Source: Mobula hypostoma (lineage: Eukaryota). Taken from it: 64,000 nt of DNA. Numbering within the stretch: the stretch's first letter is position 1; every line of letters starts with the position of its first letter. The DNA lies in the NCBI RefSeq assembly GCF_963921235.1, contig NC_086097.1, positions 95,482,001-95,546,000 on the forward strand. The letters run 5' to 3'. The translations under genes and the position numbers were made by a program. Under the pieces are notes generated by a model. It was given only the letters and a program-made list of their open reading frames with translations, made no database searches and was not told where the DNA came from. Of the stretch, positions 26,991 through 62,103 are shown one piece after another.

Positions 26991-27256
26991 CTCTACAATC
27001 ATTAGCATTTCTGAAGCCGTGTTAATGTGATCTGATCCATCATAGCATTTCAATTTAATTGGTTATACTGCCTAAAGGGAAAAATATTGCAATCCTGGAA
27101 TCTATTTCATTTATATTTGTCATTGTCAAGCATCCGGAGGCCATTTATAAGCAGAGGAACAAAGCAATCACCAAAATCGGCACATTACAGGCAAGCAACA
27201 CACATCAAATTTGCTCGTGAACGCAGCAGGCCAGGCAGCATCTCTAGGAAGAGGTA

Positions 27257-27294
27257 CAGTCGACGTTTCAGGGCAAGACCCTTCATCAGGACTA
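27257..27294 (-). ncRNA. Minimal hammerhead ribozyme, left arm
   Basis: Minus strand TAGTC-CTGATGA-AGGGTCTTGCCCT-GAAA-CG-TC-GACTG; intact core. Confidence 0.75.
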
Positions 27295-27921
27295 ACTGAA
27301 GGAAGAGCTAGTAAGAGATTTGAAAGTGGGATGGGGAGGGGGAGATCCAAAATGATAGGAAAAGATAGAAGACAGGAGGGGGAGGGATGGAGCCAAGAGC
27401 TGGACGGGTGATTGGCAAAAGGGATATGAGAGGATCATGGGACAGGAGGCCCAGGGAGAAGGAAAAGGGGGAGGGGGGGAAAAACCCAGAGGATGGGCAA
27501 GGGGTATAGTCAGAGGGACAGAGGGAGAAAAAGGACAGAGAGAGAAAGAATGTGTGTATATAAATAAATAACGGACGGGGTACGAGGGGGAGGTGGGGCA
27601 TTAGCAGAAGTTAGAGAAGTCGATGTTCATGCCATCAGGTTGGAGGCTACCCAGATGGAATATAAGGTGTTGTTCCTCCAACCTGAGTGTGGCTTCATCT
27701 TTACAGTAGAGGGGGGCCATGGATAGACATATCAGAATGAGAATGGGATGTGGAATTAAAATGTGTGGCCACTGGGAGACCCTGCTTTCTCTGGTGGACA
27801 GAGCGTAGGTGTTCAGCAAAACGATCTCCCAGTCTGCGTCGGGTCTCGCCAATATATAAAAGGCCACATCGGGAGCACCGGACGCAGTATATCACACCAG
27901 CCGACTCACAGGTGAAGTGTC

Positions 27922-30636
27922 AGGTGGCGTTGCTGGTTAAAGATGAGATTAATGCAATAGAAAGGAAGGACATAAGCCGGGAAGATGTGGAATTGATATG
28001 GGTAGAACTGCATAACACTAAGGGGCAGAAAACGGTGGTGGGAGTTGTGTACAGGCCACCTAACAGTAGTAGTGAGGTCGGAGATGGTATTAAACAGGAA
28101 ATTAGAAATGTGTGCAATAAAGGAACAGCAGTTATAATGGGTGACTTCAATCTACATGTAGATTGGGTGAACCAAATTGGTAAAGGTGCTGAGGAAGAGG
28201 ATTTCTTGGAATGTATGCGGGATGGTTTTTTGAACCAACATGTCGAGGAACCAACTGGAGAGCAAGCTATTCTAGACTGGGTTTTGAGCAATGAGGAAGG
28301 GTTAATTAGCAATCTTGTCGTGAGAGGCCCCTTGGGTAAGAGTGACCATAATATGGTGGAATTCTTCATTAAGATGGAGAGTGACATAGTTAATTCAGAA
28401 ACAAAGGTTCTGAACTTAAAGAGGGGTAACTTTGAAGGTATGAGTCGTGAATTAGCTAAGATAGACTGGCAAATGATACTTAAAGGATTGACAGTGGATA
28501 TGCAATGGCAAGCATTTAAAGATTGCATGGATGAACTACAACAATTGTTCATCCCAGTTTGGCAAAAGAATAAATCAAGGAAGGTAGTGCACCCGTGGCT
28601 GACAAGAGAAATTAGGGATAGTATCAATTCCAAAGAAGAAGCATACAAATTAGCCAGAAAAAGTGGCTCACCGGAGGACTGGGAGAAATTCAGAGTTCAG
28701 CAGAGGAGGACAAAGGGCTTAATTAGGAAGGGGAAAAAAGATTATGAGAGAAAACTGGCAGGGAACATAAAAACTGACTGTAAAAGCTTTTATAGATATG
28801 TAAAAAGGAAAAGACTGGTAAAGACAAATGTAGGTCCCCTACGGACAGAAACAGGTGAATTGATTATGGGGAGCAAGGACATGGCAGACCAATTGAATAA
28901 TTACTTTGGTTCTGTCTTCACTAAGGAGGACATAAATAATCTTCCAGAAATAGTAGGGGACAGAGGGTCCAGTGAGATGGAGGAACTGAGCGAAATACAT
29001 GTTAGTAGGGAAGTGGTGTTAGGTGAATTGAAGGGATTAAAGGCAGATAAATCCCCAGGGCCAGATGGTCTGCATCCCAAAGTGCTTAAGGAAGTAGCCC
29101 AAGAAATAGTGGATACATTAGTGATAATTTTTCAAAACTCGTTAGATTCTGGACTAGTTCCTGAGGATTGGAGGGTGGCTAATGTAACCCCACTTTTTAA
29201 AAAAGGAGGGAGAGAGAAACCGGGGAATTATAGACCGGTTAGCCTAACGTCGGTGGTGGGGAAACTGCTGGAGTCAGTTATCAAAGATGTGATAACAGCA
29301 CATTTGGAAAGCAGTGAAATCATCGGACAAAGTCAGCATGGATTTGTGAAAGAAAAATCATGTCTGACGAATCTCATAGAATTTTTTGAGGATGTAACTA
29401 GTAGAGTGGATAGGGGAGAACCAGTGGATGTGGTATATTTGGATTTTCAAAAGGCTTTTGACAAGGTCCCACACAGGAGATTAGTGTGCAAACTTAAAGC
29501 ACACGGTATTTGGGGTAAGGTACTGATGTGGATAGAGAATTGGTTAGCAGACAGGAAGCAAAGAGTGGGAATAAACGGGACCTTTTCAGAATGGCAGGTG
29601 GTGACTAGTGGGGTACCGCAAGGCTCAGTGCTGGGACCCCAGTTGTTTACAATATATATTAATGACTTGGATGAGGGAATTAAATGCAACATCTCCAAGT
29701 TTGCGGATGACACGAAGCTGGGCGGCAGTGTTAGCTGTGAGGAGGATGCTAAGAGGATGCAAGGTGACTTGGATAGGTTGGGTGAGTGGGCAAATTCATG
29801 GCAGATGCAATTTACTGTGGATAAATGTGAAGTTATCCACTTTGGTGGCAAAAATAGGAAAACAGATTATTATCTGAACGGTGGCCGATTAGGAAAAGGG
29901 GAGGTGCAACGAGACCTGGGTGTCATTATACACCAGTCATTGAAAGTGGGCATGCAGGTACAGCAGGCGGTGAAAAAGGCGAATGGTATGCTGGCATTTG
30001 TAGCGAGAGGATTCGAGTACAGGAGCAGGGAGGTACTACTGCAGTTGTACAAGGCCTTGGTGAGACCACACCTGGAATATTGTGTGCAGTTTTGGTCCCC
30101 TAATCTGAGGAAAGACATCCTTGCCATAGAGGGAGTACAAAGAAGGTTCACCAGATTGATTCCTGGGATGGCAGGACTTTCATATGAAGAAAGACTGGAT
30201 GAACTGGGCTTGTACTCGTTGGAATTTAGAAGATTGAGGGGGGATCTGATTGAAACGTATAAAATCCTAAAGGGATTGGAGAGGCTAGATGCAGAAAGAT
30301 TGTTCCCAATGTTGGGGAAGTCCACAACAAGGGGTCACAGTTTAAGGATAAAGGGGAAGCCTTTTAGGACTGAGATTAGGAAAAACTTCTTCATACAGAG
30401 AGTGGTGAATCTGTGGAATTCTCTGCCACAGGAAACAGTTGAGGCCGGTTCATTGGCTATATTTAAGAGGGAGTTAGATATCGCCCTTGTGGCTACAGGG
30501 ATCGGGGGTATGGAGGGAAGGCTAGTGCAGGGTTCTGAGTTGGATGATCAGCCATGATCATAATAAATGGCAGTGCAGGCTCAAAGGGCCGAATGGCCTA
30601 CTCCTGCACCTATTTTCTATGTTTCTATGTTTCTAT
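27922..30636 (+). mobile_element. Young 5'-truncated CR1 LINE with open ORF2 (partial APE endonuclease plus RT)
   Basis: Uninterrupted frame to 30557 with GVVYRPP, MGDFN, SDHN, YRPVSLTS, LDFQKAFDKV, GVPQGSVLGP, KFADD. (TTTCTATG)n tail. TSD GTGTC at 27917-27921 and 30637-30641. Confidence 0.95.
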
Positions 30637-31102
30637 GTGTCGCCTCACCTGGAAGGACTGTCTGGGGCCCTGAATGGTGGTAAGGGAGGAAGTGTAAGGG
30701 CATGTGTAGCACTTGTTCCACTTACAAGGATAAGTGCCAGGAGGGAGATCAGTGGGGAGGGATGGGGGGACGAATGGACAAGGGAGTCACGTAGGGAGCA
30801 ATCCCTGCGGAAAGCAGAGAGAGAGGGGGAGGGAAAGATGTGCTTAGTGGTGGGATCCCGTTGGAGGTGGCGGAAATTACAGAGAATAATATGTTGGGCC
30901 CGGAGGCTGGTGGGGTGGTAGGTGAGGACCAGGGGAACCCTATTCCTAATGGGGTGACGGGAGGATGGAGTGAGAGCAGTTGTGCGTGAAATGAGAGAGA
31001 TGCGTTTGAGAGCAGAGTTGACGGTGGAGGAAAGGATTTTGTGCCCCTCACTCTCCCTTGACCATGACTCTGAGGCAATGCTGATAATGGAATTCCTTGT
31101 TC

Positions 31103-31828
31103 TGCTGGATATCACCATACATACTGTCTTTTTGCAATTAATAGATGACCCATTTTTGCACTTTCTTCAACAACTATATCAATTAAGTTTTACAGTTCTT
31201 CCTCCGTACTTGCAATTAACACAGTGTTATCTGCATATCTGAAATTATTGATGTTTTCACCACCAACTTTGATTCCCAAGATGTCTCTTATTTTTTGTAC
31301 TATTGTTTCACTGTACACATTAAACAAATCAGGGGAGAAAACATACTGTTGTCTATCTATCAATTGCAAAAAGACAGAATGTATGGTGATATCCAAAAAG
31401 AAAGAGAATCCAATCTGAAGGCTGAGAATAAACGGGGAAGACATAAAACAAGTACAGAACTTTTGCTACTTAGGAATCTGGGTGAAATCAGATGGCAGGT
31501 GCGAGATGGACATCAAAGAAGAACAGGGATGGCAAACGACACCTTTACGAGAATGAAGAGTATACTGACCAACACTAAACGAGGCATGACAACCCACCTC
31601 AGAGTACTGAAATGTTACGTTTATCCAGTTATGTAATATGGCTCAGAATGTTGGACAATATCTAGTAACATGAGGAAACGAATTGAAGCAGCAGAGATGT
31701 GGTTTTTGAGGAGGATGCAAAGAATATCATGGACAAAACGAATATCTAACGAGAATGTCATGAACAGAGCAAGCACAAAAAGAGAAATAATGTATCAGAT
31801 CATGAAAAGGCAACGTAACTTCATTGGA
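31103..31828. mobile_element. RTE-clade LINE fragment with 5' inversion
   Basis: Minus 31340-31103 encodes FSPDLFNVYSE...INNFRYADNTVLIAST. Plus 31351-31828 encodes LSINCKKTECMVIS...KRIEAAEMWFLRRMQRISWTKRISNENV. Confidence 0.85.
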
Positions 31829-33000
31829 AATACAAAATTCTCTGCGGATGCTGGGGTCAAAGCAACACGCACAACACGCTGGAGGAACTCAGCAGATCGG
31901 GCAGCATCCATAGAAATGAACAGTCAACGTTTTGGGCCAAAACCCTTCACCAGGACTGAAGAGGGAGGGGGCAGGGGCCCTATATAGGATAATGTGCTGG
32001 ATCCGGAGGCTGGTGGGGTGGTAGGTGAGGACAAGGGGAACTCTGTCCCTGTTGTGGTGACGGGAGGATGGGGAGAGGACCGAAGTGCGGGAAATGGAGG
32101 AGATGCGGGTGAGGGCATCATTGATGACGGCAGAAGGGAAACCACGATCCTTAAAGAAAGAGGTCATTTGAGATGTCCTGGAACGGAACGCCTCATCCTG
32201 GGAGCATATGTGGTGGAGACGGAGGAACTGGGAATAGGGAATAGCATTTTTGCATGTGGCAGGGTGGGAAGCGGTATAGTCGAGGTAGTTATGAGAGTCA
32301 GTGGGCTTATAGAAAATGTCAGTGGACAGTCTGTCTCCAGAGATGGAGGCCGAGAGATCGAGAAAGGGGAGCGAAGTGTCCGAGATGGACCAAGTGAATT
32401 TGAGGGCTGGGTGAAAGTTAGAAGTAAAATCGATGAAATTGACGAGCTCAGCATTAGTGCAGGAAGCAGCAACGATATAGTCGTCAATGTAGCGAAGGAG
32501 AAGTTGGGGAGCAGTACCAGTAAAGGTTTGGAGCATAGACTGTTCCACATAACCAACAAAGAGGCAGACAAAGCTGAGGCCCATGCGAGTGCCCATAGCT
32601 ACACCCTTGGTCTGAAGAAAGTGGGAAGAGCCAAAAGAGAAGTTATTAAGTGTGAGTACCAGTTCCACCAGCTGAAGGAGGGTAGTGGTGGTGGGGAACT
32701 GGTGAGGTCTATTGTCCAGAAAGTAGTGGAGGGCTTTGAGGACTTCTTGATGAGGAATGGAAGTGTATAAGGATTGGACATCCATAGTGAAAATGAAGCG
32801 GATGGGACCGGGGAACTGAAAGTCATTGAAGAGGTGGAGGGCATGGGATGTATCCCGGATGTAGGTGGGGTTTGATTTCCTTCTTCACCTTTCCTGCCTA
32901 TCCTATCCTCTCCTTGCTTCCCCTCCCCCACCCCATGATCTTTCCCCTTACTGGTTTTTCACCTGGAACCTACCAGTCTTCTCCTTCCCACCCTCATCCA
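31829..33000 (-). mobile_element. Second-subfamily PLE fragment (RT domain, internal deletion, inverted UTR piece at ~32873-33000)
   Basis: ORF 31889-32785: MDVQSLYTSIPH...QTKGVAMGTRMG...LRYIDD...LPFLDL...YKPT. The RT region joins directly to the terminus at ~31985. Confidence 0.9.
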
Positions 33001-33443
33001 TGTGCCCATCAAGAGTTTAATTGTTCCTACTGTGTCTGTCCTAAATTCAGTGACGGACGGGGTAGAAGCTATCCTCGAGCCTATTGGAAAGCGTTTTTGT
33101 GCTTTCCAATCTCCTGCCCGATGGGAGGGGGGGATAAGACAGAATATGGGAGAGGTCTTTGATTGTGCTGGCTGTTTTACTGAGGCAGTGAGAAATGCAG
33201 AAGAGTCCAAAGAGGAGAGGAAGATTTCTGTGATGTGCTCAGTTGTGTCCGTAACAACCTGCATTTTCCAGAAGTCACATGCTTGATCATGATGAGGTAG
33301 ATCGTGATGTCATTATGATCCAGTAACTGACCACAAGAAACTGCAGGCTGAGTGCAGTTCATCTGAGTGCAGACGGAGAGGCTAGTCTCCTTGAGGTGCT
33401 GAGCTGCTTCGTCAAGATTTTCTTAGAATTACGCACAAAATCT

Positions 33444-34280
33444 ATGGAGTTCTGCAAACTAAACAGGCGGGTGGTCCTTGGCCTGTCGATAGGCAGTGCT
33501 ACCATCATCATTGGCTGGTGGGCCTACCAGAATTTCGCCAAGAAGCGCCACCAAGCTGTGAAGGCCAAGCATGTAATCGGCACAGCTCAGCCAGTGGATT
33601 GCAAAGCGCAGTCCAAGGTTAGAAGCCAGAATATGGAGGAGGGGAGTATAGAATCAGGAGATGGAGGAAATGAGCAGGGGATCTCATCACAGGGACTGGC
33701 AGATCCAGGGCTAAGTCCTGAACCGGCTCCGGAAGATCGAGGGCTAAGTCCCGAACCGGCTCCGGAAGATCCAGGGCTAAGTCCCGAACCGGCTCCGGAA
33801 GATCCAGGGCTAAGTCCTGAACCGGCTCCGGAAGATCGAAGGCTAAGTCCCAAACCGGCTCCGGAAGATCGAGGGCTAGGTCCTGAACCGGCTCCGGAAG
33901 ATCGAGGGCTAAGTCCCAAACCAGCTCCGGAAGATCAAGGGTTCGGTCCCGAACCGGCTCCGGAAGATCCAGGGCTCGGTCCCGAACCGGCTCCGGAAGA
34001 TCGAGGGCTCGGTCCCGAACCGGCTCCGGAAGATCGAGGGCTTAGTCCCGAACCGGCTCCGGAAGATCGAGGGCTTAGTCCCGAACCGGCTCTGGAAGAT
34101 CGAGGGCCAAGTCCCGAACCGGCTCCGGAAGATCGAGGGCCTAGTCCCGAACCGGCTCTTGGGCATACCCAAACAGAGGCGACTGAACTGGAGCTGAGCC
34201 CAGTGGACGAACACTGGAATCGAGAGGATGAGGGGGAGGAAAATGGATGGGAGGGCAAAGGAACCATCAGAGATCAGTAG
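33444..34280 (+). CDS. Candidate first exon/ORF (278 aa): N-terminal signal anchor plus 14 x 11-aa Pro/Glu repeats; possibly pseudogenic
   Basis: MEFCKLNRR-VVLGLSIGSATIIIGWWAY-QNFAKKRH is a hydrophobic helix flanked by basic residues. An acidic disordered region follows. After the TAG at 34278-34280, exon-like purine-rich sequence continues to a possible donor AAG|GTAAAA at 34625/34626. Confidence 0.5.
   Translation: MEFCKLNRRVVLGLSIGSATIIIGWWAYQNFAKKRHQAVKAKHVIGTAQPVDCKAQSKVRSQNMEEGSIESGDGGNEQGISSQGLADPGLSPEPAPEDRGLSPEPAPEDPGLSPEPAPEDPGLSPEPAPEDRRLSPKPAPEDRGLGPEPAPEDRGLSPKPAPEDQGFGPEPAPEDPGLGPEPAPEDRGLGPEPAPEDRGLSPEPAPEDRGLSPEPALEDRGPSPEPAPEDRGPSPEPALGHTQTEATELELSPVDEHWNREDEGEENGWEGKGTIRDQ
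33702..34163 (+). repeat. 33-bp coding minisatellite, 14 units
   Basis: Unit GATC(C/G)AGGGCTAAGTCC(C/T)GAACCGGCTCCGGAA encodes D(P/R)GLSPEPAPE; 14 x 33 = 462 bp with no indels. Confidence 0.97.
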
Positions 34281-35762
34281 GAGCAGAAGGATGAAGAGAG
34301 GCTGGGGGGTGGGTCGGGTGACTTCACCAATGTGCAAGTGGGCATGAGGAGGGGAATAAAATTGGGCAAGAGAAAGAGCTCCCTGGAGGAGTCGGCTGGA
34401 GAGAGGAAGCGAATGAGAAAGTGGCAGACAAAACTCCAAAGGAGACAGCCAAGAGTAGGGCAGAGGATTGGAAGGGGACAACGCAGAGCTTGGAGAAGAG
34501 TTCTCAGATTTAGGGAACTGGTGCCTGAAGATGGGTCAAAGAAAGTAGGGAAATGGAAAGAGGAATCGTTTGATCCTGGAGGAAACACAGAAGTCTGGAT
34601 CCACAATCTTCTGAAGTCAATGAAGGTAAAAATAAATATATAGACACAATTGCCGTATCTTTTTTATATATAAAGGGGGCTGTGTTCCAAAGACTTTGGG
34701 GCACTGGAATATCCAAGTTGTAGAAGGCTACTGATCAAATGCTGATTTCTGGGGCTAGTATCGATGACATTATTGAAATGGTGGGTCAAAGGGCCTGTTC
34801 CTGCGCAGATCTCTCGATGACACGTCATGACCTCACAGATCCTTTGTTTACCTGCAGTCTCCCACCCACATTAATTATCTCACTCCCCTTGCCACTGGTA
34901 CGGCACAGTGGAGAAGCAGTTAGTGCGACGCTCCACAGGGCCAGTGATCTCCGATCAGGGTGCAGTTCCACTGCTCTATGTAAGGAGTTTGTACATTCTC
35001 CCCAAGACACCATGGAGTTCCTCCAAGTTCAGTTGAAAGCTTCCAATCTCCCCTCCCCCCACCCCGCCCTACTTCCCTCGTATCGATTGTGCAGAGGAGA
35101 TTCACCAGGATGCTGCCTGGGCTAGTTTAACCCAACCTCATGTAGTCTTATGAGGACAGGATGAGCACACAAGGGCTTTTCTCTTTGGAGTGAAGGACGG
35201 TGAGAGGGGACTTGAGAGAAGTGTACAAGGTCATAACAAACATAGATCGAGTGGATAGCCAGAGATATTTTCCCAGGGAGGGAATGGCAAATAGCAGGGA
35301 GTGTACACAGAGAGTGGTGTGTGTGGGGAACCACCCCGGGGGTTGTGGTAGAGGCAGATACATTAGGTACATTTAAGAAATACCTGTGCAGAGCACATGA
35401 ATGATAGAAAAAGGGAGTGTTCTATCTGGGGAAAGAGTTATATTGATCTTAGAACAGGTTAAAAGTTTGACACAATACTGTGGGCTGAAGGGCCTGTGGT
35501 GTGCTCTGGTGTTCTATCCCACTCATTGCAATACCTTCCCCTCTCCTACCCATTAACACCCTTCCTCTGTCCTCCACTGTTCTCCCCTACCTTCCTAACT
35601 CCTGACTACTTACCCCTGCCTCACCAGATCCTCACTCTCCACTTGTCTGTTCCATCACTCCTTCCCTCCCTTCCACTTCCCCTTCACTACCCACTCCCCC
35701 CACCCTCCACTTCCATTCTGCCATCTCTCCATCAGATGCGTCCTCTCCGTGTTCCTCCCAAG

Positions 35763-35927
35763 GCCTCAAGAATGACGACGATATTCAAGTCATGCTCAAG
35801 GGTACTCACATGCTGAAGATCAAATCCAGCTCATGGATGAAGTCACGCTACAACAAACTGAATGAAGACTGTTGGACGGTGCAGTATAATTCCAAAAAGA
35901 TCCTGAAGTCAGCCAGGAGCCAAATGT
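35763..35927 (+). pseudogene. Phospholipase C-delta-like PH-domain exon (orphan fragment)
   Basis: ccaag|GC CTC...ATG T|gtgagt, 165 bp, phase 1-1. It encodes (G)LKNDDDIQVMLKGTHMLKIKSSSWMKSRYNKLNEDCWTVQYNSKKILKSARSQM, a gapless match to recalled PLCD1 [55 protein letters not shown]. An alternative in-frame acceptor lies at 35736. Confidence 0.85.
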
Positions 35928-36231
35928 GTGAGTGTTGCTCAAGTCTTGGAGGGTTGGTGTGACAGCAAACGTAGTTTTAAAAAATTGTCTCGGGCACCAA
36001 CAAGTGCAGGGATTAGTTCTTGATTCCTGGTATGGCACCACGCTGAGGCCAGTAGAGTTACTGCTTCATGGCACCAGTGACCTGGATTCTATCTTTTATT
36101 GATTCTATTTTATTTGGAGAGTGCAGACAGATCCTTCTGGCCCAAAAGGCCACACCACCCAGCGGTCCACCTGTTTAACGCCAGACAAATCACAGGACAA
36201 CTCACCTGCCCTGCTGTGTTCCTCCAGCATT

Positions 36232-36292
<61 letters not shown>

Positions 36293-36306
36293 TCTGTGTG
36301 AGTGTG

Positions 36307-36338
<32 letters not shown>
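36232..36338. repeat. (TG)n microsatellite inside a PLE terminus
   Basis: TTCCTCCAGCATTG(TG)n...TTGCTC. A (CA)n run at 36673-36697 lies in the inverted partner terminus. Confidence 0.95.
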
Positions 36339-37319
36339 CTTTGCTCAGGAAAACAACTATCCAATTCATTCAGCATTCCACAGGGGGAAGAACTTTCAGA
36401 CAATATGACCCATATGTTGCAATAAGCTCCTCTCTTTCTCACCTCCTGGTCCATTTTCATTTCTCTGTTCATCCAGGTTTCCCATAAACATGACATGAGT
36501 CATATCCATCAAGCAGGAGCTACAGAAACCTGAAGCCCCACACCTCACAACCCTAATCTTTACAGTTTAGCAACACAATGATGCCTTTGCACAAGAGATT
36601 CTGCAGATGGTAGAACAACACACACAAAATGCAGAATGAACTCAGCAGGTCAGGCAGCATCCATAACTGTTTACACACACACACACACACACACACAGGC
36701 TGAGACCCGTCTGCAGGACTCAGCCTGATGGAGAATGTTAACCCTTTCATTCCTGGAATCATTCCCATGAACCTCCTCTGGGCCCTCTGAAAGGCCTTTG
36801 AGCATTTTAAATGTCACTGATTATCTGAAAATTGCTTCAGCGGATTTAGATTATTAAATTATTTTAATTTTGTTTAAGCATACTTCACAACATATTTAAG
36901 TGCTTGAAATTAAATAAAACAAAGAAAGATAAACAATCTACTGCCCGCATGTTTTCAGTTAAGATCAGTGACCACATTCGAATGAATGGGATCACAATAC
37001 ATACACCAGCTGTTGCTGGGGTAAGCTTGAGGGACCGGACACAAAGTGCATCCAGACCTTCAATAGGTCCAATGTGGAAGGTATGAGCTCAAGTTCATTC
37101 CCATCTGCTGTGTTGTCACACAGTTAGTCAATAATTCCCTTGGGAACTGTTGTCTGAAAGCTGGGTTGATTTCCAAGTCAGGATATTGGTGCTGGTATTT
37201 GTATTGGATTAATATTGTCACATGTACTGAGGTACAGTGAAAAGCTTGTCTTGCATACTGGTCATACGCATCAATTCATTACACAGTGCATTGGGGTAGA
37301 ATAAGGCAAAACAATAATG

Positions 37320-38304
37320 TTAGGATGTTGGGCTGTAGTATGATGGACTTCACTGTGCAGTTTGAGAAGGAGAAGCTAAAGTCTGATGTATCAGTATGAT
37401 AGTAGAGTAAGAGGAATTACAGAGGCATGAAAGGGGAGCTGGTCAAAGTTGACTGGAAGGGACACTGGCAGGAACAACACCAGAACAGCAATGGCTGCAG
37501 TTTCTGAGAGCAATTCGAAAGGGTAGATGCATCCCAAAGATGAAGAAGTATTTTAAAGGGAGGATGAGACAACTGTCACTGACAAGGGAAGTCAAACACA
37601 GCATAAAGACAAAAGAGAGAGTGCACACTATTTAGCAAAAGTTAGAGGGAAGTTAGAGGATTGGGAAACTTGAAAGCCAACAGATGCCAACTGAAAAAGC
37701 AATAAAGAGAGAAAAGATGAAATATCAATGTAAGCTAGCCAATAATGTTAAAAAAAAGCATACAAAAAGTTTTTTCAGATATGTGAAGAGTAAAAGAGGC
37801 AGGAGTGAATATTGGACCACTGGAAAATTATGCTAGAGAAGTAATAATGGAGGACAAAGAAATAGCAGATGAACTGAATAATTATTTTACATCAGTTTTC
37901 ACTGTGGAAGACACCAGCAGTTTGCCAGAAGTTCAAGAGTGTCGGGGGCAGAACTGAGTGTAGTTGCTATTACTAAGGAGGAGATGGTCGGGAAACTCAA
38001 AGTTCTGAAGGTCAATAAGACAACTGGACGAGATGGACTATACCCCAGGGTTCTGAACGAGGTAGCTGAAGAGATTGTGGAGGCATTGATAGTGATCTTT
38101 CAAGAATCAGGAGATTCTGAATAGTTCTGAAGGAAAAGAAAATTTCAAATTTCACTCCACTCTTTAAGATGGGAGGGAGGCAAAAGATGGGAAATTATAG
38201 GTCAGTTAGCCAGTGGTTGGGAAGATGTTGGAGTCCATTATTAAGGAGGAGGTTCCAATGTAACCAGAATCATACAATAACATCGGACTTCATTAAGGGA
38301 AAAT
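37320..38304 (+). mobile_element. CR1 ORF2 fragment, decayed
   Basis: GKLKVLKVNKTTGRDGLYPRVLNEVAEEIVEALIVIFQES; ends abruptly at ...AAGGGAAAAT where the PLE begins. Confidence 0.85.
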
Positions 38305-40296
38305 CCCAAGATCCACAAACCTGCCTGTCCAGGTAGACCCATTGTCTCAGCTTGCTCCTGCCCCACTGAACTCATTTTTGCATACCTCAACACTATTTTA
38401 TCCCCCCTTGTTCAATCCCTTCCTACCTCTGTTGGTGACACTTCTCATTCTCTGAAATTTTTCGATGATTTTAAGTTACCTGGCCACCACCGCTTTATTT
38501 TCACCTTGGATGTCCAGTCCCTTAATACTTCCATCCCCCAGCAGGAAGGTCTCAAAGCTCTCCGCTTCTTTTTGGATTATAGACCTAACCAGTTCCCCTC
38601 TACCACCACTTTGCTCCATCTAGCTGAATTAGTCCTTACTCTTAATAATTTCTCCTTTGGCTCCTCCCATTTCCTCCAGACTAAAGGTGTAGCTATGGGC
38701 ACCCGTATGGGTCCCAGCTATGCCTGCCTTTTTGTTGGCTTTGCGGAACAATCCATGTTCCAAACCTATACTGATATCTGTCCCCCACTTTTCCTTCGCT
38801 ACATCGACGACTGCATTGGCGCTGCTTCCGGCACGCATGCTGAGCTTGTTGACTTCATTAACTTTGCCTCCAACTTTCACCCTGCCCTCAAGTTTACCTA
38901 GTCCATTTCCGACACTCCCTCCTATCTCTAGATCTTTCTGTCTCTATCTCCGGAGACAGCTTATCTACTGATGTCTACTATAAGCCTACTGACTCTTACA
39001 GTTATCTGGACTATTCCTCTTCTCACCCTGTCTCTTGCAAAAATGCTATCCCCTTCTTGCAATTCCTCGTTCTCCGCCACATCTGCTCTCAGGATGAGGC
39101 TTTTCATTCCAGGTCGAGGGAGATGTCCTCCTTTTTTAAAGAAAGGGGCTTCCCATCCTCCACCATCAACTCTGCTCTCAAACGCATCTCCCCCATTTCA
39201 CGCAATCTGCTCTCACTCCACCCTCCCGCCACCCCACTAGGAATAGAGTTCCCCTTGTCCTCACCTACCAAACCTCCAGCCTCCGGGTCCAACATATTAT
39301 TCTCCGTAACTTCCGCCACCTCTAATGGGATCCCACCACTAAGCACAACATCTTTTCCTCCCCCCCTCTGCTTTCCGCAGGGATCACTCCCTACGCGACT
39401 CTCTTGTCCATTCGTTCCCCCCATCCCTCCCCACTGATCTCCCTCCTGGCACTTATCCTTGTAAGCGGAACAAGTGCTACACATGCCCTTACACTTCCTC
39501 CCTTACCACCATTCAGGGCCCCAGACAGTCCTTCCAGGTGAGGCAACGCTTCACCTGTGAGTCGGCTGGGGCGATATACTGCGTCCGGTGCTCCCGATGT
39601 GGCCTTCTATATATTGGCAAGACCCGACGCAGACTGGGAGATCATTTTGCTGAACACCTACGCTCTGTCCACCAGAGAAAGCAGGATCTCCCAGTGGCCA
39701 CACATTTTAATTCCACATCCCATTCCCATTCTGATATGTCTATCCACGGCCTCCTCTACTGTAAAGATGAAGCCACACTCAGGTTGGAGGAACAACACCT
39801 TATATTCCATCTGCATAGCCTCCAACCTGATGGCATGAACATTGACTTCTCTAACTTCTGCTAATGCCCCACCTCCTCCTCGTACCCCATCCATTATTTA
39901 TTTATATACACACATTCTTTCTCTCTCTCTCTCTCCTTTTTCTCCCTCAGTCCCTCTGACTATACCCCTTGCCCATCCTCTGGGTTTTTCCCCCCCCCTC
40001 CCCCTTTTCCTTCTCCCTGGGCCTCCTGTCCCATGATCCTCTCATATCCCTTTTGCCAATCACCCATCCAGCTCTTGGCTCCATCCCTGCCCCTCCTATC
40101 TTCTCCTATCATTTTGGATCTCCCCCTCCCCCCTCAAATCTCTTACTAGCTCTTCCTTCAGTTAGTCCTGACGAAGGGTCTCGGCCCGAAACGTCGACTG
40201 CACCTCTTCCTAGAGATGCTGCGTAGCCTGCTGCCTTCACCAGCAACCTTATGTGTGTTGCTTGAATTTCCAGCATCTGCAGAATTCCTCGTGTTT
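38305..40296 (+). mobile_element. Penelope-like element, right arm (RT, GIY-YIG, 3' UTR, terminus), disrupted
   Basis: PKIHKPACPGRPIVS...DVQSLNTSIP...GVAMGTRMGPSYA...LRYIDD, stop at 38899-38901, then IYCVRCSRCGLLYIGKTRRRLGDHFAEH. Ends CCTCGTGTTT. Confidence 0.93.
40163..40200 (+). ncRNA. Minimal hammerhead ribozyme, right arm
   Basis: TAGTC-CTGACGA-AGGGTCTCGGCCC-GAAA-CG-TC-GACTG; stem II GGG/CCC; predicted cleavage after C40195. Confidence 0.8.
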
Positions 40297-43057
40297 ACAT
40301 TACAGGCAAGGGCTGGTAAGTGGAAAGCAAGAGACAGGCAATAACCATCTCCAATAAGAGAGCAGTTCTAACTGCCTATCCTTGACACTTAATAACATTA
40401 TAATTGTTCGAGAATCAATTATCCAAGTAATGAACTTGCACTTCTTCCAGTCTAGCGTATTGCCCAATGTGTCTCTTCTACAGCAAAGAAACCAAACACA
40501 GATCAGCTGAGAGCTTTGTTGATCAATTATTTTCAATCTACAGGGGCAACTTGAATCTCCCTATTGCATCCCACTTTTAATTGGCTATCTTATTCCTAAC
40601 TTATCTATCCTTGGTCTCCTGCAATGTTATAACGATGCCCAGCGCCCTATCACATCTTCCATCCTGGGATGCTGCAGCCTTCCAGGCTCAAAATTGAATT
40701 CCCCAACCTCACATAACTTGCATTCTTTGTCACAAGCAATCTCTGCAACCAGTCATCTACCTCTGACGTTGGCTAGTCCTTTTTCTCCCCATCTCCTGGG
40801 CATTTGTCATTAACTTGGATTATGTAACACTGGTTGTTTTCTCTGCAGCTTCACTCTCTGTCTGCCCTCATTTCAAAGTTTAGTTCATTTTCTCTCCAAC
40901 TCACCTCCCCATCAACCAGATGACCTCTGCAACATCTCCACTGCAACTCCACCTCATCAAAGATATTCCCTTTGTCCTGTCTATTCCTCCCACAGCCTCT
41001 CTGTAACTTAAAACCAAGCTGTCTTCTCTCATCAACCTGAAATATAAACTCTATTTCTTTCTCCAAAGATGTTTCACCGACCTACTAAGTAAGTTTTCTC
41101 TGTAATTTGTTTCTATTGGAAATACACTGCCATTCTTTAATGCGATTCTCTAACCCTTGAACTCCTCCTTCAACAGCATTGTCAGGGTTTCTTCACCATA
41201 GAATCAGAATCAGGTTTATTATCACCAGCATGTGTCGTGAAATTGTTAACCATAGGACTGCAACACTTCAAGGCAGCAGATAAATACCAACATCCTAAGG
41301 GAAATCAGGGATTGGCAATAAATGTCAGCTTCACCATTGGCACCCTTATCCCCAAAGCAGTGAATTTAAAAACATTCAAAATAATGATTATCTAGAAAGT
41401 ACCGCATCAAAGCCATAGAGCAAAGTAAAAACAATCTCTACCGAGGGAGTCTAATAATGGCCAAAATTATTCTGACAAGATCAGTCTGGCTAAGCATTCA
41501 AATTAAGATTGAGATTACCCCAATGTTTTCCAAAGGTAAGAAGAGATTTTAAAAAGTTGCCAAGTCAGAGCTTGCTGCTAATGTTCTGTGCAAAGAAAAT
41601 GAATCAAGGCATAACGAAGCCTGGTTCAGTTGCCCGGATACATTCAACATCTGCTGTCTACATAGTACAATTTAATATTAGTGTACTCAAACTTAGTGTT
41701 CAATCCAAACATTTTGCAAAATTAGTGGGAGGGAGACATTAATCAACTCATCTAGTCTGGATTCAAGCTGATGTCTCCATAGATCAGAATCTTAAGCCTG
41801 ATGGACGAACAGTCACAGGATTTGCAAGTCAAGATGCATTGCTCCAAAGAAAATGCATTTCCCTTATTAACCTATTCAAAAGTTTCTGACTGTGTACACC
41901 ATTTTTCTTTTGTTTGCAGGCTTCTCCAGTAGATGCTATGCGGGTAACTTTCATGGTAGTATAAGCACTCCTTCTAACTTACTTGCAGCAGTTTTTGGAG
42001 CAACAACCTCAGAAAATGAAGTAAATTTGAAATACATCCAAATTCTGACAACTCACCATGTGTTTAATACTTTACTATTATATGGCACCCTTAATGTACA
42101 AACTCCAAAAATAAGTAATGGCTTCTATTAGACTTCTCCTTTTTCACAGAAATGTTTTTTTAGCTCATTTGCCAAAGCTACAATGGCAAATTCAATTTGA
42201 AACAACTACAATTGTGCAAATTCCAGCTTTTAAACTCTTTCCATTAGAAATATGCTCTTGTAAATTGGTACAAGTCTATTTCAAGGTTGTAAAATGCCAT
42301 ATTTCCAGCACTCTACATAAGCAATTATTAAATCAGATTTTCCTAAATCAGTTTTTGTAGACACCTCCATTCAGTTTGAATTGTTTCCAAGGAAATGATT
42401 ATTGAGTCATAACTCCTCCAGTTTAATGTTCTATGAAGTGGCTGAAGGCAAGTTCCCCTCTCCTTTCCTTAAGATTTTAAGCCTGAACCCAGTTGCTACA
42501 AATTGTTTAGTGCCTCTAAAAAGTAACTTACTCAGTCAACTCAGAGAGCTGAATATTCTTTCTGGAGGAGTTGATATACAAAAGTTTAATAGCACGGCAA
42601 TGTGATGAACTCCTTAAGGCTTTTTTCTTCAAGGTGGAGCTCACAAGCAAGCCAGTTCAACCTGGCAAGATTGAATGGAACCAGGAACAATCAATGCATA
42701 GTGGAGTTGGGATAAGAATCAGTTACCTGGAGATGAGCAAAATTGAGAACGTTCATCTCAGAGGGGACTATCCAAGAAGATTTCCCAGTTCTGCCTGGTA
42801 TCCGCTCAAGAAGGCTCACTTCAAGACACACAGGAACAGGATTCCCAAAGACCTCCACAGATGAGCCTCATGGCCAAAGCAGCAGACAAAACATTAAGAT
42901 TATAGGTAGGGTGAATGTGGACATTTTTTTCTCTCTGGATGGTGAATCAAAAACTAGAGGATATAGGTTTAGATGAGAAGGGAGTTTAATAGGAACCTGA
43001 GGGGCAGCTTTTTCCACTCAGAGAGAGGTCAGCGTATAAAGTATAATGAGCTGCTGG

Positions 43058-51061: not shown

Positions 51062-54000
51062 AACTTTATTTATTAAAAAAAACCTAAGGAATAAACAGTG
51101 CAAAGTGCTGTACATTCTTTGCGTCATTTGGTCAATACATTCAGTGAAGTTGGCACATTATTTCCTCCATAGCACCATTACCACATGATCCCTGCAGTGA
51201 TGCACCTTTCCATTGTTTAAGGGACTTGTCCAACGCACTCAAACCATCAATATCCAGTAGCAGAAGGACCCCAGACTGCGGTCCTTCTCCATAAAGTCTT
51301 TGTGTTGACTGCAGCAAGCTTCAGTGTGCCCCTCATCACATCCTCCTGCAGCCTTAAATGTGTCATTGAGCAGCATTCCCTTAAGGACATCTCACTGTGC
51401 TGGAAGACCAAAAAGATTCCAACAGACTTCCACTGAGCTGATTATCTTCCAGCCGCACTTAACATCTACGTGTGTCCTCGGGAACAGCCAGCAGATCAGA
51501 CAGTTCTCTGATACCAAAAGCTCAGAATGAATGATGACAAGGACCTTTGTACCTCTCGCTGTCCTCTTAGCAAAGCTGGCTCCTCCTCAGTGCAGTCGCA
51601 CCAAAGGTAGCATTCATTGGAAGTAATAATCCAAACGTACCAAAAGACCTGACCAGAAGAGCCCCAGTCACTGCCAGCCAAGTGAGGTCTTTATACTGTT
51701 TGGCAAATTCTGGCAATGAGAGACTTTGCCATTTGATTTGAATAGAATGCTCAGGGAACTACCCTACAGTATCTATCATATCCTTGTCACACAATATTTC
51801 CAAATACTCTGTGTTGATGTCTGCCTGATGAACTTGTGGTCCACGAGGATGTTTGCTTAGAACTTTTCCACAGAGGGAGGCAGACAAGTGGGTCGCAGTT
51901 AGGAGTGGGAAGGGGAAGTGTCAGGTACTAGAGAGTACCCCAGTGGCTGTGCCCCTTGACAATAAGTACTCCTGTTTGAGTACTGTTGGGGGGGGGTCAG
52001 CTTAGCTGGGGAAGCAACAGTGGCCATGCCTCTGGCACAGAGTCCGGCCCTGTAGCTCAGAAGGGTAGGGAGAGGAAGAAGAGGGCAGTATTAATAGGGG
52101 ACTCCATAGTTAGGGGGTCAGATAGGCGATTCTGTGGGCGCAGTCAGGAGACGCAGATAGTAGTTTGCTTCCCTGGTGCCAGAGTCTGGGATGTTTCTGA
52201 TCGTGTCCAAGATAAGTGGGAGGGTGAGGAGCCAGGGGTTGTGGTACATATAGGTACCAATGACATAGATAGGAAAAGGGAAGAGGTCCAAAAAGGAGAA
52301 TATAGGGAGTTGAGAAGAAGGACCGCAAAGGTAGTAATCTCAGGATTACTGCGTGTGCCATGCGACAGTGAGAGTAGGAATGGAACGAGGTGGAGGATAA
52401 ATGCGTGGCTAAGGGATTGGAGCAGGGGGCAGGGATTCAAGTTTCTGGATCATTGGGACCTCTTTTGGCGCAGGTGTGACCTGTACAAAAAGGACGGGTT
52501 GCACTTGAATCCTAGGGGGACCAATATCCTGGTGGGGATATTTGCGAAGGCTACTGGGGAGACTTTAAACTAGAATGGTTGGGGGGTGGGAATCAAATTG
52601 AAGAGACTAGGAGAGAGGAGGTTAGTTCACAAATAGAGAAAGCTAGTAGACAGTGTGTGAGGGAGGACAGGCAGGGGACAGAGAATGGGAGCACTCAGAC
52701 CAAAGATGTAGGGGAGAAGGAAGAAAAAGATAACAAAGTTGTTTGCACCATTAGGGATAAACAGAGAGTTTCTTAAATTCATCTATTTTAATGCTAGGAG
52801 TATTGTACGAAAGGTGGATGAGCTTAGAGCATGGATTGATACCTGGAAATATGATGTTGTAGCTATTAGTGAAACATGGTTGCAGGAGGGGTGTGATTGG
52901 CAACTAAATATTCCTGGATTTTGTTGCTTCAGGTGTGATAGAATCGGAGGGGCAAGAGAGGGAGGTGTTGCATCGCTTGACAGAGAAAATATTACAGCAG
53001 TGCTTTGGCAGGATAGATTAGAGGACTCGTCTAGGGAGGCTATTTGGGTGGAATTGAGGAATGGGAAAGGTGTAGTAATGCTTATAGGGGTGTATTATAG
53101 ACCACCTAATGGGGAGCGAGAATTGGAGGAGCAAATTTGTAAGGAGATAGCAGATATTTGTAGTAAGCACAATGTTGTGATTGTGGGAGATTTTAATTTT
53201 CCACATATAGACTGGGAAACCCATTCCATAAAAGGGCTGGATGGTTTGGAGTTTGTAAAATGTGTGCAAGATAGTTTTTTGCAGCAATACATAGAGATAC
53301 CAACTAGAGAAGGGGCAATGTTGGATCTCCTGTTAGGGAATGAGATAGGTCAGGTGACGGAGGTTTGTGTTGGGGAGCACTTCGGGTCCAGTGATCACAA
53401 TGTCATTAGTTTCAATCTAATTATGGAGAATGATAGGACTGGACCCAGGATTGAGATTTTTGATTGGAGAAAGGCTAACTCTGAGGAGATGCAAAAGGAT
53501 TTAGAAGGAGTGGATTGGGACAATTTGTTTTATGGGAAGGATGTAATAGAGAAATGGAGGTCATTTAAAGGTGAAATTTTGAGGGTACGGAATCTTTATG
53601 TTCCTGTTAGGTTGAAAGGAAAGGTTAAAAGATTGAGAGATCCATGGTTTTCAAGGGATATTGGAAACTTGGTTTGGAAAAAGAGAGAGTTCTACAATAC
53701 ATATAGACAGTTTGGAGTAAATGAGGTGCTCGAGGAATATAAAGAATGTAAAAAGAATCTTAAGAAAGAAATTAGAAAAGCTAAAAGAAGATATAAGGGT
53801 GCTATGGCAAGTAAGGTGAAAATAAATCCCAAGGGTTTCTACAGTTATATTAATAGAAAAAGGATAGTGAGGGATGAAATTGGTCCCTTAGAGAATCAGA
53901 GTGGACAGCTATGTGTGAAGCCAAAAGAGATGGGGGCAGATTTTGAACAATTTTTTTTCTTCGGTTTTCACTAAGGAGAAGGATATTGAATTGTGTAAGG

Positions 54001-56600
54001 TAAGGGAAACAAGGTGGGTAGGTATGGAAACTATGATGATTAAAGAAGAGGAAGTACTGGCGCTTTTAAGGAATATAAAAGTGGATAAGTCTCCAGGTCC
54101 TGACAGGATATTCCCTAGTACCTTGAAGGAAGTTAGCGTGGAAATAGCAAGGGCTCTGACAGAACTATTTCAAATGTCATTAGAAACGGAGATGGTGCCG
54201 GAGGACTGGCGTACTGCTCATGTTATTCCATTGTTTAAAAAGGGTTCTAAGAGTAAACCTAGCAGTTATCGGCCTGTGAGTTTGACGTCAGTGGTGAGTA
54301 AATTGATGGAAAGTATTCTTAGAGATGGTATATATAATTATCTGGATAGACAGGGTCTGATTAGGAACAGTCAACATGGATTTGTACGTGGAAGGTCATG
54401 TTTGACAAATCTTATTGTATTTTTTGAAGAAGTTACTAGGAAAGTTGACGAGGGTAAAGCAGTGGATGTTGTCTATATGGACTTCAGTAAGGCCTTTGAC
54501 AAGGTTCCACATGGAAGGTTAGTTAGGAAGGTTCAATCGTTAGGCATTAATATCAAAGTAGTAAAATGGATTCAGCAGTGGCTGGATGGGAGATGCCAGA
54601 GAGTAGTGGTGGATAACTGTTTGTCAGATTGGAGGCTGGTGACTAGTGGTGTGCCTCAGGGATCTGTACTGGGTCCACTGTTATTTGTCATATATATTAA
54701 TGATCTGGATGATAGGGTGGTAAATTGGATAAGTAAGTATGCAGATGATACTAAGATAGGTGGAGTTGTGGATAATGAAGTAGGTTTTCAAAGCTTGCAG
54801 AGAAATTTAGGCCAGTTAGAAGAGTGGGCTGAAAGATGGCAAGATGGAGTTTAATGCTGATAAATATGAGGTGCTACATTTTGGTAGGACTAATCAAAAT
54901 AGGACATACATGGTAAATTTTAGGGCATTGGAGAATGCAGTAGAACAGAGGGATCTCGGAATAATGGTGCATAGTTCCCTGAAGGTGGAAGCTCATGTGG
55001 ATAGGGTGGTGAAGAAAGCTTTTGGTATGCTGGCCTTTATAAATCAGAGCATTGAGTATAGGAGTTGGGATGTAATGTTGAAATTGTACAAGGCATTGGT
55101 AAGGCCAAATTTGGAGTATTGTGTACAGTTCTGGTCACTGAATTATAGGAAAGATGTCAACAAAATTGAGAGAGTACAGAGGAGATTTAAATAGAATGTT
55201 ACCTGGGTTTCATCTCCTAAGTTACAGAGAAAGGTTGAACAAGTTGGGTCTTTATTCTTTGCAGCGTAGAAGGTTGAGGGGGGACTTGATAGAGGTATTT
55301 AAAATTATGAGGGGGATAGATAGAGTTGACGTGGATAGGCTTTTTCCATTGAGAGTGGGGGAGATTCAAACAAGAGGACATGAGTTCAGAGTTAAAGGGC
55401 AAAAGTTTCGGGGTAACATTAGGGGGAACCTCTTTACTCAGAGAGTGGTAGCTGTGTGGAACAAGCTTCCAGCAGAAGTGGTTGAGGCAGGTTCGATGTT
55501 GTCATTTGAAGTTAAATAGAGGGTTAAATGGAATGGACGGTTATGGGCTGAGTGCAGGTCGGTGGGACTCGGTGAGAGTAAGAGTTCGGCACGGACTAGA
55601 AGGGCCGAGATGGCCTGTTTCCGTGCTTTAATTGTTACATGGTTACATAAAGACAGGAGGTGAGGTAATGTCCAACTGACTGGACCATTGTACGACAATG
55701 GAGCCAGAAACATCCTTCAAACACTGGGGACAAGTCGAACCTCAACACCTGCTGACATTGACATCTTTGGTCCCAAGCACAACTTGGTGCAGACATCAGG
55801 CTGAGCTGGATATTGAGTATGTTGTTGACCATGTTGTCCAGAGATTTGCACATCCTGACCCATCAAATTCAATGGATCCACGGAGGAATCTGAAGCCTGG
55901 GCAGAGGAGTAGGACAAGACACACCTGCACCAAGTACAACAGCACAAAAAGCATTTTGCCCCTGATAAACAGGTTCTTCCCAGATATTGAGAGGGAGCAT
56001 TATTCCCACAGTCCCAATTTTTGTTTAACCGTTCCTTTCTGCTCAAATCAATTCTTGCAACACATCTCAGCCCCTCCTAACCTGATCCCCAGCATCTTCA
56101 AGTAGTCAGATCTAATGTCAAAGGGAATGGTGAACTGGTCAGGCCAACCGCCAGAGCATGGTCTTGCTTTCCCTGCAGTTTAACTCTGGCATCTGATGTC
56201 AACTCAAACCGGACACAGATGCTGGATCAGAACAGAAGACAATAATGACTTCCATGCAGAGGGAAGTTCTGACCTGAATGCTTCCACTGCTTGGTAATGT
56301 CATCCCTCTTATGCTCTCATCCTTCCTGGTGGATTTGTCAAAGAATTCTATGCAACACACAAATAAGACATGTTAGAGTGGACAATCCTGCCAAGACTAG
56401 ACGTTATGGAGTAACTATCTGTTTCCCACCCACTGATTTGGACTGCATACAAGTATGCGTCAGACAGTTGGATCCAATCCCTGATCCTCACCCGAAAGCC
56501 CATTTTGGACGGCACATCCATTGTGTACATGTGTGATATCCTGTTGCAGGCCTTCCCCTGTTCCAAACTGACCATGGTAACATAGATGCTGACATACTAA
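51062..56600 (-). mobile_element. Old L1/Tx1-like LINE remnant split by the CR1 at 51873-55648
   Basis: Degenerate LINE-like sequence on both sides of the CR1, with a poly(A)-signal-like end near 51065. No clean ORF; family assigned from nucleotide resemblance only. Confidence 0.4.
51873..55648 (+). mobile_element. Near full-length CR1 LINE: ORF1 SGNH esterase (51986-52573) and disrupted ORF2 (~52770-55519)
   Basis: ORF1 has VLIGDSIVRG, VVHIGTND and DGLHLN. ORF2 has YFNARSI, ISETW, YYRPP, GDFN, SDHN, DFSKAFDKV, GVPQGSVLGP and KYADD. Frameshifts at ~53945 and ~54845, stop at 55192-55194; (ATGGTTAC)-type tail. Confidence 0.95.
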
Positions 56601-61919: not shown

Positions 61920-62103
61920 CGGAATGGAGAATTCTTCTGCCAAATACTTTAGCATTGCAGCTTCGCTCAATAGCAGGTTACTGCGCTCTGAAAGGTTACC
62001 CTGAAGTTGCGTGTCAAATTCCTTTCGAATGACTGACGCAACCGAATCCACTACAATCAATTTCACCCCTTTCAAGATAACATCATCTTCCAGGGACTCG
62101 ACT
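61920..62103 (-). CDS. RAD51B: RAD51B internal coding exon (Walker B region; equivalent to human exon 7)
   Basis: Minus strand reads pyrimidine tract-ctag|A GTC GAG...ATT CCG|gtaagc, 184 bp. Translation (R)VESLEDDVILKGVKLIVVDSVASVIRKEFDTQLQGNLSERSNLLLSEAAMLKYLAEEFSIP matches RAD51B as I recall it (IESLEEEIISKGIKLVILDSVASVVRKEFDAQLQGNLKERNKFLAREASSLKYLAEEFSIP). Confidence 0.95.

Follow-up and report, generated by a model that had tools for sequence, protein, structure and literature searches.

A disabled anchor-spacer-PH gene copy in a candidate Penelope-carried block of Mobula hypostoma

The exons at 33444–34625 and 35763–35927 of the window (the whole stretch of 64,000 nucleotides of Mobula hypostoma DNA that was analysed) are best explained as a disabled, truncated and retroelement-carried copy from a ray anchor-spacer-PH gene family without lipase. 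A probability of roughly two in three is assigned to this reading. The anchor-spacer-PH architecture has, judged from the sequence, the appearance of a chimeric partial duplicate. The window copy itself is most likely non-functional; its value is that it marks a chimeric gene family restricted to a lineage. Two findings are new here: a sister copy is represented by spliced contigs, the RNA status of the underlying runs being guessed, and a stop codon in the window copy has arisen recently.

Anchor-spacer ORF and PH exon

The two exons comprise the following features:
33444..34280, plus strand: 278-aa ORF with a signal-anchor-like N-terminus and a disordered Pro/Glu linker (ORF reading, model)
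33471..33527, plus strand: candidate membrane anchor, a hydrophobic 19-mer at residues 10–28 (Kyte-Doolittle 1.63; helix in the model)
33540..33551, plus strand: basic flank KKRH, residues 33–36 (ORF translation)
33701..34158, plus strand: 33-bp coding minisatellite, 13.9 copies, with an 11-aa Pro/Glu unit (CpG observed/expected 1.0 vs 0.26 for the window)
34278–34280, plus strand: in-frame TAG stop (CAG in both covering contigs, each of four runs)
34281..34625, plus strand: remaining part of exon 1, basic in composition and open in the ATG frame for 115 codons (sister contigs cover it up to 34587)
34626..35762, plus strand: intron 1, donor AAG/GTAAAA in phase 0, acceptor before 35763 in phase 1 (sister junction length)
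35763..35927, plus strand: exon 2, PLCD1a-derived, first half of the PH domain (homology; sister match ends at 35927)
35928, plus strand: exon-2 donor GTGAGT (sequence)

The ORF comprises 278 codons from the ATG at 33444 to the TAG at 34278. Its start, as given in the preliminary description, was recovered: an ATG, a 19-aa helix ending in GWWAY, which is the most hydrophobic 19-mer of the ORF, and the motif KKRH starting four residues past GWWAY. A single-sequence AlphaFold2 model yielded a single helix at residues 3–42 (pLDDT 80–89 over residues 11–30), with no structure downstream. Of the long linker described earlier as acidic, the 115 codons past the TAG are basic (31 K+R vs 15 D+E). The minisatellite is free of indels and contributes 153 of the 278 codons, its unit length being a multiple of three. 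Its CpGs are kept, and no CGA codon has turned into TGA. This CpG retention may reflect a recent expansion, a low level of methylation, or selection.

The ORF is coding-like and not a product of chance. Its 239 non-repeat codons contain one stop vs 9.3 expected, and a number as low was reached in 1 of 5,000 shuffles. The anchor pattern, defined by thresholds chosen with this ORF already known, occurred in 1 of the 232 Met-started ORFs of the window, namely this one, and in 8 of 3,526 ORFs from 40 shuffles (about 0.2%). A chance frame within a non-coding exon, kept open by the in-frame minisatellite, would fit the length of the repeat unit and its share of the codons, as well as the missing homologues and Pfam matches. 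Against the stop depletion outside the repeat and the rarity of the anchor pattern at the start Met, such a frame is most improbable.

Searches for relatives of the ORF yielded little. Pfam contained no family for the 278-aa ORF. The first 90 residues, proposed earlier as a query for proteins that continue into PLC-delta domains, matched 0 of 101 candidate proteins of 488–2000 aa; the continuation did not appear, in a search that is weak for poorly annotated eukaryote genes. Among 1.84 billion representative proteins no relative was found, the single match being a marginal one to an unrelated repeat protein (E 8.9e-4). An Atlas search with the ORF gave a best score of 0.83 to an unnamed cluster, within the chance range, and all leads scored below 0.9. 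Metagenome scans confirmed 0 of 171 pattern matches for the PH exon and 0 of 105 for the N-terminus, and a viral scan confirmed 0 of 4.

The donor AAG/GTAAAA at 34625 is the top-scoring GT within 33500–34720 according to a rough weight matrix. It is located 1,137 nt upstream of the PH exon, in agreement with the earlier estimate of about 1.1 kb, and is in phase 0. The acceptors at 35736 and 35763 both require phase 1, so that the reported phase mismatch was also found.

The PH exon matches the PH domain of rat PLC-delta1 (1mai) with an E-value of 1.2e-13, covering the first half of the domain, and is 55–65% identical to elasmobranch PLCD1a in tblastn. Seven IP3-contact positions (K30, K32, W36, R40, S55, R56 and residue 57) are listed in PMC5668642. 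Six of them are identical to rat, and R56 is replaced by K. No PLC exon other than the PH exon occurs in the window. When 10 PLCD1a proteins of full length served as tblastn queries, exon 2 was the sole match in the window. EF-hands, the X/Y catalytic barrel and C2 were found in the window neither by tblastn nor by Pfam on 146 proteins and ORFs, a set that drew on the longest of the non-repeat ORFs of at least 38 codons (about 139 of 585) and in which short exons could be missed. A search for PH exon 3 in 35928–64000 gave nothing above shuffled scores, the exon-2 control scoring 173 vs at most 47; exon 3 might be located outside the window.

At 35765–35926, the PH exon of the window departs from PLCD1a at positions that are conserved in the sister and canonical contigs, e.g. 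Gln for Trp at 35882. These residues suggest relaxed constraint in the branch of the window copy.

Sister contigs and reading frame

Contigs from four runs of one study on one organism, with RNA status guessed, were compared with the window over 34160–36200 at 80% likeness. No dataset recorded as RNA was listed for 33330–34660, which has no bearing on expression. The same runs contain at least three contig classes, which are about 99% identical, about 87% identical, and long with the PH exon only. The long class probably represents canonical PLCD1a. The 99% class has a depth of 5–7 in the exon and of 2.5–6 in introns. As it is as shallow as intronic contigs, it does not demonstrate transcription of the window locus.

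The class with about 87% identity, the sister copy, differs from the window by 55–57 letters over 428 bases. In three of the four runs it joins 34587 to 35774, with 48 other letters between and 154 letters on the short side of the join; in the fourth run it occurs in pieces. Donor 34625 with acceptor 35763 predicts a gap of 49 letters, and with acceptor 35736 a gap of 76. The preliminary description had named both acceptors for a splice from 34625; the observed gap fits 35763, and 35736 was dropped for the sister copy. The sister match stops at 35927, the exon-2 donor, and one joined contig extends 548 letters past exon 2. In the sister copy, this exon is thus connected to the PH exon. Splicing is the simplest explanation, but a processed DNA copy could mimic the join. 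The connection supports the exon with the 33444 ORF as a first exon for the PH exon, as had been suspected.

In one run, a contig over 34426–34570 with two differences stops matching the window past 34570 and continues with 42 other letters; a weak GT is located nearby, at 34568. It may represent another splice form or another copy.

The contigs that read CAG at 34278 include some that are 99% identical to the locus. Since these lack the TAG, the stop is recent in the lineage of the window copy, or an assembly error. The preliminary description attributed the blocked fusion to the TAG and the phase mismatch. The block itself stands, but the TAG is better seen as a recent lesion than as the main obstacle.

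From 34160 to 35774, all three joined sister contigs comprise 491 nt and the window 477. The ATG frame of the sister copy is one base off the PH frame, and the window has the other of the two possible offsets. As the spacing of 491 nt is out of frame, the sister copy does not encode a fusion either. Its PH-linked frame meets stops upstream, however the gap letters are placed. The frames starting at 33445 and 33446 were rejected as PH-linked coding frames, each retaining three stops in 34369–34587. An in-frame join of anchor and PH exon was found at none of the window and sister junctions counted. Two weaker phase-1 donors, at 34308 and 34317, would allow such a join if the allele lacked the TAG.

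The differences tested in the sister copy were the 29 listed out of 55–57. None of the 29 creates a stop in the ATG frame, which is not significant (P 0.32). Among 23 differences tested at the codon level, 7 were synonymous vs 4.5 expected (P 0.16), which gives no signal of purifying selection.

The real product might be the anchor-spacer ORF itself, a single-pass disordered protein of about 280–400 aa, the PH exon being merely a downstream exon out of frame. The ATG frame stays open under the listed sister differences together with a net in-frame insertion of 15 nt, while the +1 frame gains two stops, and the out-of-frame junctions of both copies and the stop depletion of the non-repeat codons agree with such a product. 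It is nevertheless unlikely, as the selection test was non-significant and the protein representatives held no relative beyond the marginal repeat protein.

PLCD1a relatives

Canonical PLC-delta had been described as lacking a transmembrane segment, and the proteins bear this out. Of 49 proteins taken from the PLCD1a cluster, 9 without the exon-2 motif were excluded. None of the 40 elasmobranch PLCD1a proteins with the motif has a hydrophobic N-terminus (maximum Kyte-Doolittle value 0.83). Exon 2 is homologous between elasmobranch PLCD1a and the window copy: its borders coincide, it starts in phase 1 in both, and most of the residues that contact IP3 are shared. The first exon of PLCD1a is unrelated to the anchor exon (no blastp match at E ≤1) and PLCD1a has no anchor, whereas the window copy differs from PLCD1a in that exon 3 and the EF-hand, catalytic and C2 exons are absent from the window.

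Among 7 candidates, the sole match of the PH exon was XP_072131985.1, a protein of 118 aa annotated as 'PLCD1-like' in Mobula birostris. It is 97% identical over the 39 exon-2 residues that it covers. Its gene and that of the canonical PLCD1a of Mobula birostris are located on two separate contigs of chromosome length. Between 72 and 79 of 104 residues are identical to the PH regions of 12 elasmobranch PLCD1a proteins. In a PH tree, XP_072131985.1 is placed with uncertainty on a long branch (0.35), which is uninformative on the date of the duplication. It shares two of four ray-vs-shark sites and none of three myliobatiform sites. With this site sharing and an unplaced branch, the attribute 'ray-specific' is weakly tested. 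Back-translation of its tail in the +1 frame allows 8 of 9 canonical residues, equalled by 0 of 1,000 shuffled tails. This match at the protein level indicates that XP_072131985.1 ends by a frameshift just past the PH domain. The protein resembles the window copy in its near-identical exon 2 and in the PH domain as sole domain. It differs in possessing exon 3 and in its annotation from an internal Met without the anchor exon.

The preliminary description inferred an anchored PLC-delta enzyme as the parent gene. The joined anchor and PH exons of the sister copy, the contig continuing beyond exon 2 and the phase-1 donors at 34308 and 34317 could be read in favour of a complete, membrane-anchored enzyme. 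The sister contigs continue beyond both of these donors, however, and the nearest annotated relative, XP_072131985.1, stops past the PH domain. A search with XP_072131985.1 among proteins of 208–2000 aa returned canonical PLCD1a in 13 of 13 matches (497–788 aa). In view of these results, the uniformly non-hydrophobic PLCD1a N-termini, the unmatched N-terminal query and the missing EF-hand, catalytic and C2 exons, an anchored enzyme is very unlikely and the earlier proposal is not supported. Among the papers listed in a literature search, none dealt with a PLC-delta of cartilaginous fish that is anchored or reduced to the PH domain. The main text of a preprint on manta and devil ray genomes (10.64898/2026.10.27.761883) has no mention of phospholipase, PLCD, pleckstrin or Penelope.

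Penelope-like arms, origin and known systems

Both exons are located inside a 13-kb block (27182–40310) with inverted Penelope-like arms and a 14-bp direct repeat. The block and its surroundings comprise the following features:
27182..27195, no strand: left 14-bp direct repeat, candidate target-site duplication (flank comparison)
27192..31031, minus strand: left Penelope-like arm (27192–27920 and 30642–31031), interrupted by a LINE
39156..40296, plus strand: right Penelope-like arm, with a GIY-YIG match below the curated cut-off and 32 extra terminal bases
40297..40310, no strand: right 14-bp direct repeat (flank comparison)
61920..62103, minus strand: RAD51B exon of 184 nt with AG and GTAAGC ends

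Reverse transcriptase and GIY-YIG matches occur in the block, those of Penelope type below the curated Pfam cut-offs. A LINE at 27741–30557 (plus strand) with an open endonuclease-reverse transcriptase frame of 938 codons splits the left arm over 27921–30641. As it interrupts the arm, the LINE is the younger of the two, and its insertion is possibly recent. A second LINE at 52712–54851 (plus strand) carries endonuclease and reverse transcriptase frames in two overlapping ORFs.

The RAD51B exon corresponds to residues ~191–252 of the human protein. Motifs of the next RAD51B exon were not found in the window. With the exon on the minus strand and these motifs absent, the most likely position of the block is an antisense one downstream of this exon, within the large RAD51B intron that follows it and away from the PLCD1a locus; this intron appears to take up the remainder of the window.

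The 14-mer is the sole word of at least 9 bases common to the two flanks and is positioned at the outer ends of the arms; among up to 20,000 pairs of random stretches, 13 had a 14-mer in common. The arms are inverted relative to each other. The intron at 34626–35762 is retained in the block and skipped in the sister contigs. A comparable case is Pen3a-NRPS of the rotifer Adineta vaga, in which Penelope captured an intron-containing gene; one inverted pLTR carries a 31-bp tail, the duplication measures 8 bp, and the empty site was proven (PMC3846280). Pen3a-NRPS and the window block are alike in host exons with an intron, inverted Penelope termini, a short direct repeat and a tail on one arm. 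The cargo of Pen3a-NRPS is a whole gene between short pLTRs with a demonstrated empty allele, whereas the window block has arms of about 1.1 kb and a two-exon fragment as cargo. The window would provide a candidate example, in a vertebrate, of a gene fragment moved by Penelope together with its intron, the precedent concerning a rotifer (PMC3846280).

For the origin step alone, the exons could have arrived by segmental duplication or by a Penelope-bridged local rearrangement, with arms and 14-mer later or unrelated; this route overlaps with the best explanation. Copies of this Penelope family are numerous; a third one, at 1–651, is 89–90% identical to each arm. The two arms of the block are only 92% identical, and 4 of the 14 repeat bases lie within the left arm. 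Opposed to this are the direct repeat at both outer ends, with no other such word shared by the flanks, and the 32-nt extension of one arm, which resembles the 31-bp tail described in PMC3846280. Arrival by such a route is rather unlikely.

The preferred reading, a retroelement-carried copy, involves three steps. In the first, which is partly shown, PLCD1a exons 2 and 3 would have been duplicated behind an anchor exon, the protein being terminated past the PH domain by a frameshift where exon 3 ends. In the second, suggested by the anatomy of the block, a copy with its intron would have moved in the 13-kb Penelope-armed block into the RAD51B intron, with exons 1 and 2 as cargo and without exon 3. 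The third step is shown in the window copy, from which no fusion is possible: it has the TAG, its phases do not match, and half of its PH domain is missing. TAG, phase and missing exon 3 together rule out an anchored PH protein from this copy. The preliminary description had considered the copy disabled on the first two grounds and overlooked the loss of exon 3. At most, a 278-aa anchored disordered peptide is predicted as product.

An intact member of the family would most likely insert its N-terminus into an organelle membrane, followed by about 350 flexible residues and a PH domain binding PI(4,5)P2/IP3. It would act as a tether or as a lipid/IP3 buffer and not as an enzyme. Tentatively, and with more doubt than confidence, rays may harbor an expressed multi-copy family of anchored PLC-delta1 PH proteins that lack the lipase and were spread by Penelope capture. 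Intact members would connect an organelle with membranes containing PI(4,5)P2 or act as local IP3 buffers, and the window locus would be a recently broken member that records how the family moves. The PLC-delta1 PH domain is the standard PI(4,5)P2 probe. If intact, translated members exist, they would represent a natural anchored version of it, easily tested for organelle tethering or IP3 buffering.

TOM20, TOM70, AKAP1, TDRKH and RMDN2/3 are N-terminal signal-anchored proteins of the mitochondrial outer membrane, the type to which the preliminary description likened the layout. They likewise combine a moderately hydrophobic N-terminal helix, a basic C-terminal flank and a disordered region. 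The resemblance to the 278-aa ORF is one of layout only, no sequence homology having been detected. Non-catalytic phosphoinositide binders and tethers comprise PRIP/PLCL1-2, ORP5/8, the extended synaptotagmins and yeast Num1. These differ in architecture and origin, and the window copy cannot form a PH fold. Their functional analogy is to an intact member of the family, which would join an organelle anchor to a PI(4,5)P2/IP3 module.
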